Origin: a virus
Reading direction: 5' to 3' (one strand)
Length of the DNA: 47,717 nucleotides
UHGV virus genome: UHGV-0097968
The notes under the pieces are model-generated. The model did not search any database. It was not told where the DNA came from and saw only the letters and a program-made list of their open reading frames with translations. Positions within the stretch are counted from its first letter, which is position 1. Each line of letters starts with the position of its first letter. The translations under genes were made by a program, and so were the position numbers. Shown here one piece after another: positions 6,257 through 22,814 of this stretch.

Positions 6257-6306
6257 GTAAAAATAAAGGCAATGCATTGAAAACATTGCCTTTATTTTAT
6301 TTTTTG
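6257..6306. terminator. Bidirectional rho-independent terminator after the repressor gene
   Basis: 10-bp stem AAAGGCAATG/CATTGCCTTT with 9-nt loop, flanked by A-run on one side and T-run (TTTATTTTATTTTTT) on the other. Confidence 0.6.
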
Positions 6307-6710
6307 GTGGGGGTTAGTTTCTTTCTGGTAACCAGTAACTCTTCAAATAAACGATTAAAGTTTTCAACTTTATCTTCTAATTCAATTAGTTGCTTTTCTT
6401 TTTCTGACTCGGGTAATGAATCAAATAACTCTAACAATCTTTTTTGACGTGAATCCAGCTCTGTTGGTAATTCGTCTACCGGAGTTGGCGCCTGGTCTTC
6501 GTCACCAAAAAGCAGCCATGTGGCAGAACACTTAAGTGCATTGGCCAAAGCCAGCAAGTTCTGACCTTTTGGTTCATTTTGTCCGCTTTCCCATTTAAAA
6601 ACGCTCACACTCGATCTTCCAACCATATCAGCAAGCTGTTGTTGGGTTAGACCAAGCTGTTTGCGTCTTTGAGATAAACGGTCGCTAAGCATCAAATTCT
6701 TCATCCTCAT
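6297..6710 (-). CDS. cI-like repressor, XRE-family HTH only (no peptidase S24 domain)
   Basis: 137-aa ORF with N-terminal HTH (LTQQQLADMVGRSSVSVFKWESGQNEP), divergent from a Cro-like gene; C-terminal part short, acidic and coiled-coil-like. Confidence 0.85.
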   Translation of the reverse strand: MRMKNLMLSDRLSQRRKQLGLTQQQLADMVGRSSVSVFKWESGQNEPKGQNLLALANALKCSATWLLFGDEDQAPTPVDELPTELDSRQKRLLELFDSLPESEKEKQLIELEDKVENFNRLFEELLVTRKKLTPTKK

Positions 6711-11226: not shown

Positions 11227-11447
11227 AAGAACTTTTTCTTGCATTTGTGCCCCGGTTTATTAATGACCAGATAGCACTGACTGATAATGGTGAACAATAT
11301 GAAATTGCCTGCAGCATGGTGGATGTGAATCCTGGCGAACGGTATGACGCGATGTGTGACCTGAAAATATTTACCTGGCTGGGTTGGGCTATTCCGTGTG
11401 GAGAACCAACCAATATTCGCCCGTTTGAGGGCAGGGAGGCGGTATGA
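11223..11447 (+). CDS. Hypothetical protein
   Basis: 74-aa ORF, start overlaps upstream stop. Confidence 0.45.
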   Translation: MKELFLAFVPRFINDQIALTDNGEQYEIACSMVDVNPGERYDAMCDLKIFTWLGWAIPCGEPTNIRPFEGREAV

Positions 11448-11514
11448 GTGTGTTGCCGCTGGCATTCGTATCAAAGAAGAGTGAGATGGTAGCTTAGAAC
11501 ATCGGTAATTTTCA

Positions 11515-11568
11515 TTGACGTGATTATAACCTAAGGTTATCATCAAAATACTGTACATTTATACAGTG
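11515..11568 (+). promoter_or_regulatory. Promoter with palindromic operator and LexA (SOS) box upstream of the colicin-like gene
   Basis: TTGACG 11515-11520; 15-bp perfect palindrome ATAACCTAAGGTTAT 11526-11540 in the spacer; -10 TATCAT 11538-11543; LexA box TACTGTACATTTATACAGTG 11549-11568 (CTGT-N8-ACAG). Confidence 0.7.
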
Positions 11569-11623
11569 CTTAGAGGGTGATTCTCTAATATCTCTGGGAA
11601 ATAATTAATAGAAGGAAGTAGAT

Positions 11624-12775
11624 ATGGCATGGACTGGATTTGGTGGTCAATGGAATAACGGTGTGCATTCTGGCGGTGATGATTCTGGCAGTATAGGCGG
11701 TGGGGGCATAAAACTTGACGGCAAAGGGAATCCTGTAGGTACTCGTGCGCCGACTGCTGAGGAGATCGCATCACAATGGAATAGCTTTGGAGGTAGTCAG
11801 ATTAAACCCAGTGATGTATCGAACATCAGACCGGATGGTGAAGGTACTTATCAGGCTAACATTGCAGGTAATTACCACGTTGTAAGTTCGCAGGGCGCGA
11901 ATACCCCATTTGCTTCGGAACGTAGCAACGTTGCGGCAGGTTTTAGTGGTGGTGTGGGACCAACGCCTGATGGAAGGGGTAACAATAGTGCACCCAGCAA
12001 TCCAAAGGCTGAGGCCGAGGCAAAGAAATGGATTGAAACAGTCAAGGCTGTTCGGGCTGGTAATATCCCCTACGGTTATGTTCTTAACGACGGCAAGGTA
12101 GGCGTAAACGTGCCTCAATATGTTGAACGCCGCAAAGGTCGTGGCGACACATATACCGTTCGGGGTAAAGATTTGTTTGTTGTTTCGCCTGAACTGACAA
12201 AAGCGTATCAGGATGGTCTTGCGGAACGTGCTGAGATTCTGGACGCCGTCAAATTTACGTCTGATTTCTATAAAGACCTTGCAGGTAAATTTGGACAGCA
12301 TAACGCGAACATCGCAAAGGAACTGGCGGAGGCTGCAAAAGGCAAGAAGATTCGTAACAGCAAAGATGCACTGGCGGCGGTGGATAAATTTAATAACCGA
12401 CTGAGTAAAAAGTATGGAGCCAAAGACCTTGAGGCAGTTGCCAGGGCTTTGGAATCGGTTAACCGGGATGCAATGGCGAAGAATTTGTCTAAATTTGGTA
12501 AGGCATTTGGTGTCGCAAGTTATGCTGTCGATGCTTACAATGTTCTTTACATTGAATTTCCGAAAGCTATTCGTACCAAAAACTATCGCCCAATGCTTGT
12601 TAAGTTGGAGGCAATTCTTCTTGGTGCTGATGCTGGTATTGTTGCTGCGTGGGCATTTAGTGCGCTTCTGGCAACGCCGATGGGTATTCTGACGTTTGCG
12701 CTTATAATGGCATTGCTAAGTGCGATGATTAATGAAAAACGCATTGAGGAACTGAATAAGTTCTTAGGGATTTAA
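11624..12775 (+). CDS. Colicin E1-family pore-forming bacteriocin (short, 383 aa; Gly-rich N-terminal domain, C-terminal channel-forming domain)
   Basis: Gly-rich N-terminus MAWTGFGGQWNNGVHSGGDDSGSIGGGG; C-terminal domain with GKKIRN, KFGKAFGVAS, RTKNYRPMLVKLEAILLGADAGIVAAWAFSALLATPMGILTFALIMALLSAMINEKRIEELNKFLGI (hydrophobic hairpin and terminal NKFxGI) matching my recollection of colicin E1/Ia-type pore domains; SOS box in promoter; GAAGGAAG RBS. Confidence 0.85.
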   Translation: MAWTGFGGQWNNGVHSGGDDSGSIGGGGIKLDGKGNPVGTRAPTAEEIASQWNSFGGSQIKPSDVSNIRPDGEGTYQANIAGNYHVVSSQGANTPFASERSNVAAGFSGGVGPTPDGRGNNSAPSNPKAEAEAKKWIETVKAVRAGNIPYGYVLNDGKVGVNVPQYVERRKGRGDTYTVRGKDLFVVSPELTKAYQDGLAERAEILDAVKFTSDFYKDLAGKFGQHNANIAKELAEAAKGKKIRNSKDALAAVDKFNNRLSKKYGAKDLEAVARALESVNRDAMAKNLSKFGKAFGVASYAVDAYNVLYIEFPKAIRTKNYRPMLVKLEAILLGADAGIVAAWAFSALLATPMGILTFALIMALLSAMINEKRIEELNKFLGI

Positions 12776-12795
12776 CCGTTATCAGTAGTAACAAG

Positions 12796-12818
12796 GGCCA
12801 CGTCATGTGGCCTTTTTT
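12796..12818 (+). terminator. Rho-independent terminator after the colicin-like gene
   Basis: Stem GGCCAC/GTGGCC, loop GTCAT, then T6; the immunity gene stop codon lies inside the loop on the other strand. Confidence 0.6.
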
Positions 12819-13147
12819 GACAATTGAATATAAATAATAGACAGGAGGCCAATGGGAATGGAAAAAATAAAAAGAATACCGTGGTATAAACCCATTACCC
12901 CGCTTTTTAAACAGGTGTCTGTCCACGCTCCTGTTACCCATGATTCGGATGTTGTATATTTGAGGACGATGTTTTCTACAGCTTTTTTTGCATATGGGAA
13001 CAAGAAACAACTAATAACAGAAAGCATAACCAAATAATCCCATATCCACAAATCGCCTTCAGCTATGGCCTGATGCCACCTGAAAACCGTCATGCCGAGA
13101 AATACGCATCCGTACAGGATGTTGCTCAAATAATATCGAAATGTCAT
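12803..13147 (-). CDS. Colicin E1-type immunity protein (3-TM inner-membrane protein), convergent with toxin gene
   Basis: 114 aa; MTFRYYLSNILYG..., FPYAKKAVENI..., SIPIGLLSIIYI resemble ImmE1 (MSLRYYIKNILFG..., CPYSKYAIEYI..., AIPFGLLGLF) by recollection; three hydrophobic segments; opposite-strand arrangement typical of pore-former immunity genes. Confidence 0.8.
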   Translation of the reverse strand: MTFRYYLSNILYGCVFLGMTVFRWHQAIAEGDLWIWDYLVMLSVISCFLFPYAKKAVENIVLKYTTSESWVTGAWTDTCLKSGVMGLYHGILFIFSIPIGLLSIIYIQLSKKAT

Positions 13148-13444
13148 CTATGTTCCTTAAGTGTAGAACTCGTCTGACTGTTTTAACCATCCAGAACTCT
13201 ATGAATAACATAACATACCAGTCGTTACGAGAGTACAAGAAAACAATTGGTGATGTTTCTGTATCCGAAATATATCAAATAATAGATATTAAGAATAGTT
13301 GCCTAATATCTATTTGAAGTGTTTATGGATAATATCTATGACGACGAATTGTTCGCAGGGTTTATTGCAAGAGGGGAGCTACATGGTGTTGAGTACCCAC
13401 TGAATGTAGAGAATGTGAACACAGGCTGTTTGAAGTTGATTGAA

Positions 13445-13473
13445 TTGACTTAGAAAAAGTCCGGGGCTATAGT
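13445..13473 (+). promoter_or_regulatory. Candidate sigma70 promoter for a small RNA
   Basis: TTGACT 13445-13450, 17-bp spacer, TATAGT 13468-13473. Confidence 0.45.
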
Positions 13474-13479
13474 TTCCGC

Positions 13480-13556
13480 GCAGCCGCAAAATCGGTTGCC
13501 GGGATTTGCACCCCGGATATCTAAAAGGCGACAACGACGCGCCAGCGTCTTTTTTA
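13480..13556 (+). ncRNA. Candidate about 77-nt small regulatory RNA upstream of the antirepressor gene (C4-like/antisense-type)
   Basis: Promoter immediately upstream; hairpin GCAGCCG-CAAAAT-CGGTTGC; hairpin CCGGG-ATTTGCAC-CCCGG; terminator stem GACGC/GCGTC with GCCA loop and T6 at 13536-13556; loop sequence has a complementary and a direct copy in the antirepressor leader. Confidence 0.4.
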
Positions 13557-13715
13557 TTGTCGTGCGCACAGCCACATCCGCGATTTATGGTGGGGCGTGT
13601 AGGGGAGTCGAAAGGCTCGCCGGGTCCTTTTAGCCGGTAGTGCAAACCCTGCATGTCTCACCACCCAAAGATTTGCACCTGAGGGGGGTGATTATCCGAC
13701 TAAAAGGAAATCGCT

Positions 13716-14510
13716 ATGACAACTCAAGTATCCGCAGCAGCCATCTCCCCGATTATCCACAACCAACTTCCCGTCCTCACCACCGAATTACTCGCGAACC
13801 TCTATGGCACAGAGCCGGATTACATTCGTAAAAACCATAACCGGAACTCAGAGCGATTCGTGGTCGGGAAGCATTACTTTTTGCTCGAAGGTGAGGAGTT
13901 GCGCGAATTTAAGCACAGCATGTCTTTAAGACCTCCTGTGAAAATCGCCAGAAATGTCCGCTCTCTCATCCTCTGGACAGAACGCGGCGCAGCTCGCCAT
14001 GCCAAAATGCTGGAAACAGAACAGGCCTGGGAAGTTTTCGAAAAGCTGGAAGATTGTTATTTTAGCCAGCGTCCAGAGAGGCGGAGTACAACTACCGATG
14101 ACCGTACTCCCTTACGTGATGCCGTTAATATGCTGGTCGGTAAGAAAGGCATGATGTATCCCGATGCCTACACCATGATTCATCAACGCTTCGCCGTCTC
14201 TCACATAGAACAACTGTCACAGACGCAAATGTTAGAGGCGATTGAATACATCCACTGCCTGCTACTCGATGAAAATCAGCCAACCATTCCGGATTTTTCT
14301 TTTATCACCACTATCAAAAATGGAAAAGTGACAAGGATGCGCCATGTTGCCAAAGGCGAACATCTGATGACCTTTGACGCTTTCAAAGAGATCGCTGAGC
14401 GGGCAGGGTATCTGGTGATCCACAGCGACAACCTGCGAAGTATGACGCTGGATAAATTGATGCTAATGGGGGAAAAGTCGGCTGTATCCGTTGCTGATTC
14501 AGCATTTTGA
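13716..14510 (+). CDS. Putative antirepressor (ORF6N-like N-terminal domain)
   Basis: 264 aa; N-terminal region ISPIIHNQLPVLTTELLANLYGTEPDYIRKNHNRNSERFVVGKHYFLLEGEELREF resembles ORF6N/Ant-type domain by recollection; RBS AAAAGGAAA. Confidence 0.6.
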   Translation: MTTQVSAAAISPIIHNQLPVLTTELLANLYGTEPDYIRKNHNRNSERFVVGKHYFLLEGEELREFKHSMSLRPPVKIARNVRSLILWTERGAARHAKMLETEQAWEVFEKLEDCYFSQRPERRSTTTDDRTPLRDAVNMLVGKKGMMYPDAYTMIHQRFAVSHIEQLSQTQMLEAIEYIHCLLLDENQPTIPDFSFITTIKNGKVTRMRHVAKGEHLMTFDAFKEIAERAGYLVIHSDNLRSMTLDKLMLMGEKSAVSVADSAF

Positions 14511-14541
14511 CAGGTTGAATGTTTGGCGCGGTTATACTCTA

Positions 14542-14618
14542 TTTGCGCTTAAAAAGGTATTTAGTCACAACCAGCACGAGGCCGAATACTCTGTCAAAGT
14601 ACCGCCCATGTAAAACTG
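14542..14618 (-). pseudogene. Frameshifted 3' fragment homologous to the C-terminal end of the 18140-18745 membrane protein gene
   Basis: 77 bp with about 90% identity by eye to 18144-18220; minus-strand translation starts MGGTLTE then loses frame through a 1-bp deletion. Confidence 0.5.
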
Positions 14619-14687
14619 TAACGTATGTACTTGATGACTAAGCTGGCACCAGGTTAACACCAGGCGCCAGCTTGAAGGAAACTTCAG

Positions 14688-15611
14688 TTATTGGTTTCTG
14701 AGGAAAGCGATTCTTGAAAGGGTCATTTGCGTCTGGCAGTCGAGCATTTTCTTGACTTCAGCATCTGTTCCCTGCATTGAAACTTTACCGCACATAGCAT
14801 CCTTAGTTTTGATCCACTGACGCTGAGAAGGCAGCAAATCTTTTTTCTTCGCCGGGGTTAACTTGCTCCAGACGGTACTCAAATCAGAGTCGGCATTCGC
14901 AAATGCCATTCGGGACTGATCAAGGCTGTCAGCTTTTTGTGGCTGAAGTTGTGCCTGTCTCTCTATTTGCTTCTCCGCCTCATACTTAGCCTGTTCCTGC
15001 GCCCTGAGTTGCACCTGTTGTTCCGCTTCAATTTGGCTCTGTTGGGCATCCTTAGCCTGCTGGATTTTCTGCTGCTCAACGATCGGGTTGATAATAGAAA
15101 GTGATGTCAGTAAAGCGGCGCCCACTGATATCGGATTATCAGAAGAGGTTTTTACAAAAACGTTTTTCTGATCGTCGGTCGCCTGCACGGTGTAGGTGAT
15201 ACGTTTGGAAAAGGCGTTTGCGTTGTTCTCCAAAAACAGGCTTTCCATTTGCTTGTCGAGATTACGATTAAAATTCTTTCTGTAAGCATCTGAAAGCTGG
15301 ACGTACTCGTTCGCAGGTAGAGTCATCGTCACGGTCCCTTCACAAGTTTTCATTGTGCTGCCCGTGTCACTTGATGTTGTGGAGATTTCAGAGACGGCTA
15401 GTTTGATCTTGTCCAGTGTGCTTCGTTTGGTCTGATTAGTGACATCAGGGTATTTATCGACCTGTTCAGAGAGTCCTTCATAAGCAGATTTTTTTAATAA
15501 ATCCATGAGAGCTGATTGGGTCATTTCCGAAGAACAACCGATCTCATCTTTTTTGTTATCACAGCCTGTAAGGGCAATGGCGAGTAAGAGTACTGAGTAT
15601 TTTAATCTCAT
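14688..15611 (-). CDS. Lipoprotein with C-terminal DUF1311/LprI-like domain
   Basis: 307 aa; signal peptide with lipobox LTGC; Gln-rich coiled-coil middle; C-terminal motif WSKLTPAKKKDLLPSQRQWIKTKDAMC...C typical of DUF1311 by recollection. Confidence 0.75.
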   Translation of the reverse strand: MRLKYSVLLLAIALTGCDNKKDEIGCSSEMTQSALMDLLKKSAYEGLSEQVDKYPDVTNQTKRSTLDKIKLAVSEISTTSSDTGSTMKTCEGTVTMTLPANEYVQLSDAYRKNFNRNLDKQMESLFLENNANAFSKRITYTVQATDDQKNVFVKTSSDNPISVGAALLTSLSIINPIVEQQKIQQAKDAQQSQIEAEQQVQLRAQEQAKYEAEKQIERQAQLQPQKADSLDQSRMAFANADSDLSTVWSKLTPAKKKDLLPSQRQWIKTKDAMCGKVSMQGTDAEVKKMLDCQTQMTLSRIAFLRNQ

Positions 15612-19243: not shown

Positions 19244-19810
19244 AGCTCCTCCAGTTACTGCATTACGATTATTGGTTGAAATATAGACAACATGTTCCGT
19301 ACCACATTCCTGTAAAAGTGCAAATTCTGCACTTCTGGTACGATATTAACTGTTAGTAGTAAAGTCTTCCAGATAAATCACTTTAAAATCTTGTGAATTG
19401 CTTGCTTTTTACGCTGCATTGTGGATGACTCAATGTTTCCAGTAAAAACATACAGGATAATCATGAGATTAGTGGTTTTTTAGGCATCCATATGTTTCTG
19501 AAAAAAATGGATGCCACAAGCGCCTGGATGAGCACAGGAAGGGAAGGCTATTACATGTGTGATTTATTACATCTGTAAAAAAATACAGATCTAACTTGAT
19601 CTTTTCATTGAAGTCTTTCTTAGTCCTGGATAGGATCTGGAGGTTGCGAAGTTTTTAGAGTCGCATCAAAGGGAAAGCCCTGACAGTTGGAGCTGTCAGG
19701 GCCATACAAAAACATCGGTTAATGCTTTCGTTGAGATCTCGGTTTGGGAGATTACCTCAACCGGGATCCCGTGTAAAGCATTCATTGCCGAAAATGATAT
19801 AGGTCAATGA

Positions 19811-20941: not shown

Positions 20942-20979
20942 ATGACAAATGCCATAAAATACTGTATAAATGTACAGGC
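20942..20979 (+). promoter_or_regulatory. Second LexA (SOS) box overlapping a promoter
   Basis: TACTGTATAAATGTACAGGC at 20960-20979 (CTGT-N8-ACAG); -35 ATGACA 20942-20947 and -10 TATAAA 20965-20970 inside the box. Confidence 0.65.
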
Positions 20980-21853: not shown

Positions 21854-22143
21854 AAAAAATCGACCTCAGAAAAGCTGCACGCGGTCGCGCTTGTACTGTG
21901 CGTATCCCCGGTGTGTGTAATCACAATCCGGAAACCAGTGTACTGGCTCACTACCGCCTCGCCGGAACATGCGGAACAGCAATCAAACCACACGATATGC
22001 AGGGCGCTATCGCCTGCAGTGCGTGTCACGATGCTATCGACGGACGTACAAAAACGGATTACGAGCACGACTCATTGCTGTTGATGCACGCTGAGGGAGT
22101 TTTCAGAACACTGGCTATCTGGCGCGATGAGGAGTTTATCTGA
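21850..22143 (+). CDS. DUF1364 (YbcO-like) nin-region protein
   Basis: 97 aa; DLRKAARGRACTVRIPGVCNHNPETSVLAH...IACSACHD resembles YbcO by recollection. Confidence 0.6.
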   Translation: MKKIDLRKAARGRACTVRIPGVCNHNPETSVLAHYRLAGTCGTAIKPHDMQGAIACSACHDAIDGRTKTDYEHDSLLLMHAEGVFRTLAIWRDEEFI

Positions 22144-22814
22144 TGAGTAACGAGTATTTATTGGAATATACCCGCATAAAACTGCGCGCTGCATTGCGGG
22201 ATTTGTCTGGTGGTTCTAAGGGGCAACTGGAAGCATTGTGTGAGCACCCGCCGGCAGACAAAAACGCATACCCACGCAAACATATTCATCGTGTGCAACT
22301 GGAGGACCGGACCGTTGATGCTCTGGTTACGCCAGTTTACGCCCTGGAAAGTTTCAGCAGACGTCGCCCCGCGCCGCCGATGAATGATTTTGAATTTGCT
22401 GATTCATCCTGGCGGCGTTCTGTGAACTCGCTGGATGCAAGTCAGCAAGCGTGGTTGCGCTATTGCTACGGTGGTAACCTGGCGTTCAAACACCAAACAG
22501 CTATTTGTGAGGCTGTCTGGAGTCGCTATAAAGGAAACATCCCCGCGTCAACTCAGAGAAAAGTAGTCAAGCGCCTGCTTTCGCTGGTGTGGTTGTCCGT
22601 GCAGGCGGTCGCAGCAGCAAATAAACGCGAGGATTTTAAGGAGATGGCCGGATCTGCGCTAGCTGGAATGTTGTCTGTTTCTCGCTCCACCTGGTGCGAA
22701 ACATACTCCCCGCACTGGGCAGGAATGAAAGAGGCGGTGAGAGCACTTGATGAAGTGGCACTTCTTGCAACTTTGCATCATTATCAAAACCATTTAGACG
22801 ACGTTTGCGTATAA
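22143..22814 (+). CDS. Putative late-gene antiterminator (Q-like) by position
   Basis: 223-aa ORF immediately upstream of the late promoter region and holin gene; no family motif confirmed. Confidence 0.4.
   Translation: MSNEYLLEYTRIKLRAALRDLSGGSKGQLEALCEHPPADKNAYPRKHIHRVQLEDRTVDALVTPVYALESFSRRRPAPPMNDFEFADSSWRRSVNSLDASQQAWLRYCYGGNLAFKHQTAICEAVWSRYKGNIPASTQRKVVKRLLSLVWLSVQAVAAANKREDFKEMAGSALAGMLSVSRSTWCETYSPHWAGMKEAVRALDEVALLATLHHYQNHLDDVCV

Follow-up and report, generated by a model that had tools for sequence, protein, structure and literature searches.

The antirepressor genes of phages P1 and P7 form part of the immI locus, which is organized in the order a1, b1–c4–a2, b2–icd–ant1/2 (Citron and Schuster, 1990). 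As quoted in Additional file 1 of Weinberg et al. (2010; PMC2864571), Citron and Schuster proposed a competition for c4 between a1/b1 and a2/b2, by which ant can be expressed. The c4-a1b1 motif was defined by Weinberg et al. (2010; PMC2864571) and is held in Rfam as RF03163 under the label "a1, b1 targets of C4 antisense RNA." It consists of two covarying hairpins around a1, directly 5′ of b1 and upstream of C4; its definition includes no terminator, and it is not presented there as a small RNA in its own right. In Gifsy-1, the isrK promoter drives isrK–orf45–anrP, the read-through RNA is translationally silent, a processed RNA of ∼80 nucleotides (nt), STnc1160, lies downstream of IsrK, and IsrK supplied in trans raises the translation of anrP 139-fold (Hershko-Shalev et al., 2016; PMC4825925). 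A 2025 review still gives IsrK and c4 as unrelated systems. Here, we describe a locus at positions 13445–13715 of the virus genome UHGV-0097968, analyzed as one stretch of 47,717 nt (the window), in which an IsrK-family RNA and a C4-family RNA stand in tandem directly upstream of an antirepressor-like gene, ant. The locus is probably an immI-type (P1 c4-type) RNA cassette gating the prophage antirepressor, in the IsrK form known from Gifsy-1, with C4 repressing ant and IsrK sequestering C4.

A whole-window Rfam scan identified isrK (RF01394) at 13480–13555 with 76.2 bits against a threshold of 50, covering model positions 1–77 of 77, and C4 (RF01695) with 73.6 bits against a threshold of 45 over the full-length model. 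Both exceed their gathering scores and lie in tandem directly 5′ of a gene for an ORF6N-domain antirepressor. This covariance search had been proposed by the first-pass annotation, a reading of the letters alone that took the 77-nt transcript of this region for a c4-like repressor RNA. The c4-a1b1 model (RF03163) aligned over its full length at 13467–13519 with 45.8 bits (E = 1.4e-10; curated threshold, 46.7). For comparative analysis, relatives were collected by an Ant-protein search of viral contigs, which gave 48 loci, and by a pattern search for the conserved IsrK core, which gave 120 more. Covariation was scored on an alignment of 64 representatives with less than 90% identity, and the pairing values in the lists below refer to this alignment. 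The elements of the promoter and the IsrK RNA are as follows:

13445–13473, + strand: sigma-70 promoter of the module, with TTGACT at 13445–13450, a 17-nt spacer and TATAGT at 13468–13473
13480–13555, + strand: IsrK-family small RNA, assigned by Rfam isrK and by its fold, which is the c4-a1b1 motif plus an intrinsic terminator
13480–13499, + strand: IsrK hairpin 1, with 98.4% of the alignment cells paired and 6 of 7 pairs changed on both sides
13500–13515, + strand: IsrK hairpin 2, from the predicted fold
13505–13511, + strand: a1 site UUUGCAC (loop of hairpin 2), whose complement is a′ of C4
13521–13528, + strand: b1 site CUAAAAGG in the single-stranded IsrK linker 5′ of the terminator, complementary to the b′ loop of C4
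13536–13549, + strand: stem of the IsrK terminator, GACGC-GCCA-GCGTC, followed by T6 at 13550–13555

The promoter agrees with the consensus at 10 of 12 positions, is kept in the relatives and is the sole promoter-like site in a 2-kb scan (12700–14700). The same scan, together with the P1 annotation, located its homologue in P1, the promoter P1c4/P51b (TTGACC-17-TATAGT). Promoter and terminator would bound a predicted IsrK RNA of ∼76 nt. The near-consensus promoter, the strong GACGC-GCCA-GCGTC + T6 terminator and the discrete small RNA between them had all been recognized in the first-pass annotation, and the isrK match now gives this putative transcript a family; three hairpins are predicted for it (13480–13499, 13500–13515 and the terminator), not two. 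The 77-nt RNA is hence a member of an already known small RNA family. Its placement agrees with that of isrK: a C4/STnc1160-like element lies 3′ of it, followed by an antirepressor gene, and the central portion of the RNA is complementary to the C4-like element. It also has the c4-a1b1 layout of two hairpins carrying a1, with b1 directly 3′, both sites being complementary to the adjacent C4.

The structured RNA belongs to the + strand, since many of its helices contain G-U pairs that are valid on that strand only. No cis-antisense promoter was detected on the minus strand in the promoter scan of 12700–14700. A protein-coding reading of the region was rejected; the minus-strand open reading frame (ORF) at 13379–13654 and the short plus-strand ORFs overlap the structured RNA. 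No LexA box was found at the IsrK promoter, the nearest perfect box being that of a colicin gene described below. A further complementarity was noted between TCCGGGG (13460–13466, between the −35 and −10 elements) and CCCCGGA (13511–13517, 3′ side of IsrK hairpin 2). Its conservation among the relatives is high, and it fits the optional "third stem" of Weinberg; such a stem is possible only in transcripts entering from upstream, e.g., from the early right operon.

Downstream of the terminator, the following elements make up the C4 RNA, the leader and the gene:

13583–13668, + strand: C4-family antisense RNA (Rfam C4), homologue of P1 c4 and of Salmonella STnc1160
13587–13640, + strand: orf45 remnant, with its ATG in the 5′ arm of C4, 17 codons and TAG at 13638–13640
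13588–13604 with 13647–13663, + strand: stem P1 of C4, 99.2% of cells paired, 10 of 17 pairs changed on both sides
13605–13618, + strand: hairpin P2 of C4, 98.7% paired, 5 of 5 pairs changed on both sides
13619–13638, + strand: hairpin P3 of C4, 89% paired
13626–13633, + strand: b′ CCUUUUAG, loop of hairpin P3
13640–13646, + strand: a′ GUGCAAA, single-stranded joiner from P3 to the 3′ strand of stem P1
13658–13691, + strand: alternative hairpin with a2 in its loop, stem 13658–13666 with 13683–13691
13672–13678, + strand: a2 target site UUUGCAC, within the 10-nt direct repeat GAUUUGCACC at 13670–13679
13700–13707, + strand: b2 target site CUAAAAGG, overlapping the ant Shine-Dalgarno sequence AAGGA at 13704–13708
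13716–14510, + strand: antirepressor-like gene ant, 264 amino acids, with an N-terminal ORF6N domain

The ORF6N domain of the ant product matched Pfam PF10543 with E = 1.2e-18, its E. coli relatives bear the annotation "ORF6N domain-containing protein," and in related phages the gene is labeled antirepressor. The ant ATG is 7 nt past the Shine-Dalgarno sequence, and b2 is 8 nt 5′ of the ATG with no ORF between them. All four site pairings are perfect over 7–9 nt; a′ pairs with a2 over 7 bp and b′ with b2 over 8–9 bp on the Shine-Dalgarno sequence (a point mutation of the b′ loop would turn it into, for example, CCUAUUAG). On the + strand, the combination of a followed by b is found at just two places in the 47.7-kb window. 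The fold of the leader has a z score of −3.8. A processed form of C4 spanning ∼13589–13665 (∼77 nt) is predicted by analogy with P1, in which C4 is processed from a longer transcript by RNase P (Hartmann, 1995, quoted in PMC2864571). The core pairs of the alternative hairpin are mostly more than 90% paired, 8 of its 9 pairs are changed on both sides, and it has 20 double-change cells against 3.4 in shuffled controls. Since the strand 13658–13666 also serves as the 3′ strand of stem P1 of C4, the C4 fold and the a2 hairpin are mutually exclusive in the unprocessed RNA. A similar a2-hairpin arrangement was seen by eye in phage P1.

Taken together, the features of the locus exceed chance, because two Rfam models score over their curated thresholds, the promoter, hairpins and complementarities are kept with compensatory changes, and the combination of a and b is unique to two places.

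The position of these sites bears on the role given to the small RNA in the first-pass annotation, which cast the 77-nt RNA itself as a c4-like repressor that blocks translation by pairing with the ant leader. The sequence GGGATTTGCACCCCGG at 13501–13516, within IsrK, is indeed partly complementary to CCGGTAGTGCAAACCC at 13634–13649, as had been noted, and the two lie on the same transcript as ant. This stretch, however, is inside the independently folded and covarying C4 RNA, away from the ribosome-binding site (RBS), and is not an RBS target. The direct copy GATTTGCACC of the IsrK sequence also exists, at 13670–13679, one base from the position 13671–13680 first given to it. The a sites had thus been seen, but the second repeat, CUAAAAGG, present as b1 (13521–13528) and b2 (13700–13707), had been missed. 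Because IsrK repeats the sequences of a2 and b2 and is not their complement, it is unable to pair with these RBS-side sites, and competition with them for C4 is the only course left to it. A repressor role is already contradicted by the 139-fold activation by IsrK in Gifsy-1, the sole homologue tested experimentally, and is most improbable. The roles are hence inverted, the 77-nt RNA being IsrK, i.e., the a1/b1 motif with a terminator, while the resemblance to the P1/P7 c4 logic, which had been proposed from the letters alone, holds for the locus as a whole.

Judged from its sequence, the module has the P1 layout a1, b1–c4–a2, b2–ant. The order and spacing of the sites agree with the annotated P1 record, where a1, b1, c4, a2 and b2 at the RBS follow one another. 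Similar to the window, P1 has two hairpins bearing a1 with b1 just 3′, a C4 of the same Rfam family, a2 a few nucleotides past C4 and b2 on an RBS. In P1, the c4-a1b1 model matches the region annotated as a1/b1, and in Gifsy-1 that of isrK; the two hairpins of the model correspond to IsrK hairpins 1 and 2. The a1/b1 region of P1 (locus L052, 296–412) scored 35 bits with the isrK model, below the threshold, and shares the −10 element TATAGT. There are also differences between the two. The RBS under b2 is that of ant itself in the window but that of icd, a small gene coupled to ant, in P1. The promoter region of P1 also includes a C1 operator; the module of the window lacks the P1-type combination of an icd-like gene and this operator. 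The a and b sequences of P1 differ from those of the window as well. No terminator-like site was found 3′ of b1 in P1 by the same scan, and the intrinsic terminator is what sets IsrK apart from the P1 leader.

Comparison with Gifsy-1 (L002) showed both Rfam families in the same order (isrK, 79.3 bits; C4, 69 bits). Its promoter and terminator are homologous to those of the window, its a and b sites are placed alike, and an ORF6N-type antirepressor gene follows directly; DNA identity is ∼69% across the module plus the 5′ portion of ant. The alleles differ, a being UUGGCGU in Gifsy-1 and UUUGCAC in the window and b being UCACCG and CUAAAAGG, respectively. The Gifsy-1 module is directly 3′ of antQ, whereas that of the window follows the replication genes and precedes the Q region, ∼8.4 kb 5′ of Q. 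Ant of Gifsy-1 has 187 amino acids (coding sequence of 564 nt); that of the window has 264 and a longer C-terminal part. Unlike the Gifsy-1 locus, the window contains no isrJ, as judged by the whole-window Rfam scan. In Gifsy-1, the paired mutations G28/C162 and G31/C159 were found to matter (PMC4825925), and by alignment and numbering of L002, these would correspond to a1:a′ pairs.

The comparative set was used to evaluate the pairings. Among 120 distinct modules, 100 have C4 ∼100 nt (sometimes ∼142 nt) past the IsrK start, and in 99 of these 100 a T-run of at least five lies between IsrK and C4. In the 64 representatives, 97.0% of the cells are paired for a′:a2, with 6 of 7 pairs changed on both sides, and 98.7% for a1:a′, with 5 of 7 so changed. 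Controls slid by 1–3 columns gave 11–44% of the cells paired (11–43% for a1:a′). A first triple k-mer search for b sites was set aside as partly circular, as it selected for complementarity; b′ was subsequently defined solely from the alignment columns of the P3 loop. The 100 modules contain 55 distinct b′ loops. A perfect complement of at least 6 nt to the b′ loop is present in the module's own IsrK linker in 80% of them, against 4.4% of mismatched pairs, and in its own leader in 93%, against 11.6%. The b2 match ends 7–12 nt 5′ of the next ATG in most modules. The a′:a2 and b′:b2 pairings covary as strongly as those with IsrK. There are ∼30 a1 variants among the 100 modules, and the a and b alleles assort independently.

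The genes 3′ of 94 modules fall into 16 clusters, whose representatives carry ORF6N, Bro-N, AntA, Rha, P22_AR_N, KilA-N or KilAC domains; some representatives are small ORFs without a Pfam match. Tandem IsrK-like/C4 pairs were found in Enterobacterales and also in Vibrio, Xanthomonas, Ectopseudomonas and other Gammaproteobacteria, as a rough taxonomic range only, since the 15-base pattern scan of genome contigs gave mostly chance matches, with C4 downstream in 27 of 121. Three viral contigs (L077, L100 and L119) carry two IsrK-type modules each with different a alleles; in L077, these are AGTACC and GCAACC, ∼950 nt apart.

Based on these data, the favored mechanism would run as follows. Transcription would start near 13480 from the conserved promoter, and most transcripts would end at the intrinsic terminator to give IsrK, while read-through would reach the C4 RNA and ant. 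C4 would be processed, as in P1 and Salmonella, and would repress in trans, its b′ loop and a′ joiner pairing with b2 (on the ant Shine-Dalgarno sequence) and a2 such that Ant remains untranslated. With a1 in a hairpin loop, b1 in the linker and flanking complementarity, IsrK would be a better binder of C4 than the mRNA and would capture it by either of two routes: in cis, with the read-through RNA folded into a lock, or in trans, through the short RNA. Going by the direction of the effect in the Gifsy-1 experiments, excess IsrK would be an anti-antisense RNA, with C4 sequestered, the ant RBS freed and Ant made. Ant presumably inactivates the prophage repressor, which carries only a helix-turn-helix (HTH) domain. 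Both the activation in trans and the Hfq binding of IsrK are known solely from the Gifsy-1 experiments (PMC4825925).

Calculated energies are in agreement with a preference of C4 for IsrK. The a′/a1 duplex extends into the flanks and is predicted to be stronger than a′/a2 in all 100 modules (median, −25.2 and −13.9 kcal/mol, respectively; in the window, −25.4 and −10.9 kcal/mol). The b duplexes of the window are similar in strength (b1, −9.1 kcal/mol; b2, −12.6 kcal/mol). These are site-level duplexes, as RNAduplex on whole RNAs gave long unspecific duplexes and was dropped. In the minimum free energy (MFE) fold of the read-through RNA, the middle of IsrK is paired with the a′ region, whereas the centroid fold shows the IsrK hairpins and an intact C4; these two competing folds mirror structures A and B of the Gifsy-1 paper.

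Several points weigh against this mechanism. The c4-a1b1 match falls 0.9 bit short of the gathering threshold. Cofolding with RNAcofold showed no net gain for C4, with a free-energy difference (ddG) of −0.5 kcal/mol with IsrK and 0.0 kcal/mol with the leader; the program is uninformative for C4 partners, as loop–loop kissing in folded RNAs is not representable in it. In Gifsy-1, cis mutations of a1 raised, rather than lowered, the basal translation of anrP, and constitutive expression of STnc1160/orf45 strengthened, rather than weakened, the toxicity of IsrK (PMC4825925). The Gifsy-1 work left a2/b2 untested, its structure models covering nt 1–180 (PMC4825925). Covariation, moreover, cannot separate pairing in cis from pairing in trans, nor repression from other outcomes of pairing. 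Because of the a1 and STnc1160 results of Gifsy-1, the conformational lock in cis is probably part of the mechanism here too, by analogy.

These results also bear on the model proposed for Gifsy-1 itself, in which the lock forms in cis between the middle of IsrK and the 3′ part of orf45, IsrK opens it in trans and orf45 translation couples into ant; C4 is then no trans repressor, and a2/b2 are irrelevant. In Gifsy-1, it is supported by compensatory mutagenesis, native gels and 30S footprints (PMC4825925), and the MFE fold of the window has the same long-range helix from IsrK to a′. In Gifsy-1, orf45 has 45 codons and ends in AUGA, whereas the same ATG in the window (13587) opens only 17 uncoupled codons that stop 76 nt 5′ of ant, and the frame ending in AUGA at the ant start has no start codon in the window. 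As far as the sequence can tell, the orf45 coupling step therefore cannot operate in the window. orf45 is unconserved among the relatives, with 3 to 72 codons and ATG coupling in just 14 of 87 modules; these counts cover 87 of the 120 modules, as the regular expression for the C4 5′ arm missed 33. The model moreover leaves the strong a′:a2 and b′:b2 covariation unexplained. Modules with C4, a2/b2 and ant but without IsrK also exist, such as L027 and L030, which argues against it. In this form, the Gifsy-1 model is an unlikely, though not negligible, account of the locus. IsrK is an optional add-on to the C4 core, since L027, L028 and L030 lack it; in these three, the upstream sequence is unrelated, and the ATG of the C4 5′ arm is replaced by ATT.

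Phage P4 offers another precedent. Its immunity region is organized as seqA–CI RNA–seqC and, similar to the window, yields a processed RNA of ∼80 nt that is found with the Rfam C4 profile and flanked by target copies. CI RNA terminates transcription of the replication operon prematurely and does not act on an antirepressor RBS, so the likeness to the window is one of architecture only. Applied to the window, processed C4 would pair with the flanking a and b sites and cause premature termination with no translational masking. In favor of this reading, C4 and c4-a1b1 share the Rfam clan CL00128. In phage P1, a block of icd translation leads to the loss of ant transcription. A P4-like possibility was raised by the Gifsy-1 authors, who compared their system with seqA/CI/seqC and left P1 c4 unmentioned (PMC4825925), and the Rfam C4 and isrK profiles were used in a 2023 paper to detect relatives of P4 CI and seqA (PMC10111431). 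The position of b2 exactly on the Shine-Dalgarno sequence, 7–12 nt 5′ of the ATG in most modules, points to translational control instead, and the terminator scan showed no terminator-like site between C4 and ant. Termination of the P4 kind is thus quite unlikely, and masking of the ant RBS by C4 is the reading retained here.

More distant parallels are AgvB and AsxR of enterohemorrhagic E. coli (Tree et al., 2014), phage RNAs that mimic a target to titrate a regulatory RNA and thus are functional analogues, and P22 sar, an antisense RNA limiting ant translation that is cis-antisense and lies on the opposite strand. All three are unrelated to the module of the window in sequence and structure.

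The window as a whole is a lambdoid prophage of the E. coli type. The prophage is inserted beside a cluster of tRNA-Gly(GCC), tRNA-Cys(GCA) and tRNA-Leu(TAA) at 152–454, directly before the integrase gene. The genes run in the order integrase, repressor, cro, replication genes, module, accessory genes, Q (22143–22814), and lysis and morphogenesis genes. The features relevant to lysogeny and those just upstream of the module are as follows:

585–1631, − strand: integrase gene, next to the tRNA cluster
6297–6710, − strand: CI-like repressor, 137 amino acids, with an HTH_3 domain only
11551–11566: perfect LexA-box palindrome CTGTACATTTATACAG, just 5′ of the colicin ORF
11624–12775: ORF with a pore-forming colicin domain, 383 amino acids, PF01024, E = 2e-45
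12803–13147: colicin-E1-type immunity gene, on the strand opposite the colicin ORF

The domain search found no recognizable peptidase or self-cleavage domain in the 137-residue CI-like repressor. An HTH-only repressor suggests antirepressor-dependent induction, as in the Gifsy phages, and the lack of a recognizable self-cleavage domain makes such induction plausible. The region 11440–13400 is an insertion absent from related prophages, with a GC content of 38–46%. Neither 5,426 complete E. coli genomes nor the phage collection contained a DNA match to it, and its only plasmid matches, to Arsenophonus nasoniae plasmids, have 69% identity over 280 nt. The colicin-like toxin is prophage-borne and apparently SOS-controlled, the cassette ending ∼45 bp 5′ of the IsrK promoter. 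Between ant and Q, the accessory region contains two more perfect CTGT-N8-ACAG palindromes resembling LexA boxes, at 19573–19588 and 20962–20977. These may point to genes under SOS control, possibly including a second, LexA-controlled antirepressor.

The truncated orf45 and the insertion of an unrelated colicin cassette ∼45 bp 5′ of the promoter could be taken as signs of a decayed, non-functional remnant in a defective prophage. All elements score at full length, though, the promoter keeps 10 of 12 consensus positions, the four pairings are perfect over 7–9 nt, and at least 16 complete E. coli genomes carry the same allele at 98–99% identity; decay is hence very improbable. Over 24 kb, a prophage of E. 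coli 22KM0354 (L003) shows 97.3% identity to the window, but identity is only ∼84% for the module and ant (compared with 13401–14600), where it carries different alleles, a being UUGGCGU and b being CUAAGUGA; judging from this contrast, the difference looks like a cassette replacement by recombination. The private pair of a and b alleles, the truncated orf45, the position 5′ of Q and the colicin cassette just upstream are local peculiarities, and the module is a variant member of its family and no new kind of system.

RefSeq relatives annotate only protein-coding genes at this region, and the otherwise unannotated 270 bp can now be assigned by annotators to an IsrK/C4 pair. For the prophage, the antirepressor is a plausible route of induction, and the RNA cassette would be its gate. 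For the family, the pairings of C4 with the mRNA that were left out of the Gifsy-1 study are conserved as strongly as that of IsrK with C4; orf45 is not conserved and IsrK is always the stronger predicted partner of C4, which makes the competition hypothesis of 1990 for a1/b1 directly testable. A broader reading, which we put forward tentatively and hold at somewhat less than even chances, is that an RNA address code is written in the a and b sites. This code would be hypervariable, with two independently assorting parts, and would give each prophage private control of its antirepressor. Such RNA heteroimmunity would extend across Gammaproteobacteria and at least seven antirepressor-type domain families, with IsrK as a general high-affinity sponge or lock for C4 and orf45 coupling as a peculiarity of Gifsy-1. 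If this is true, the Gifsy-1 model would need a2/b2 to be added, and a question pending since 1990, that of the role of a1/b1, would be answered.

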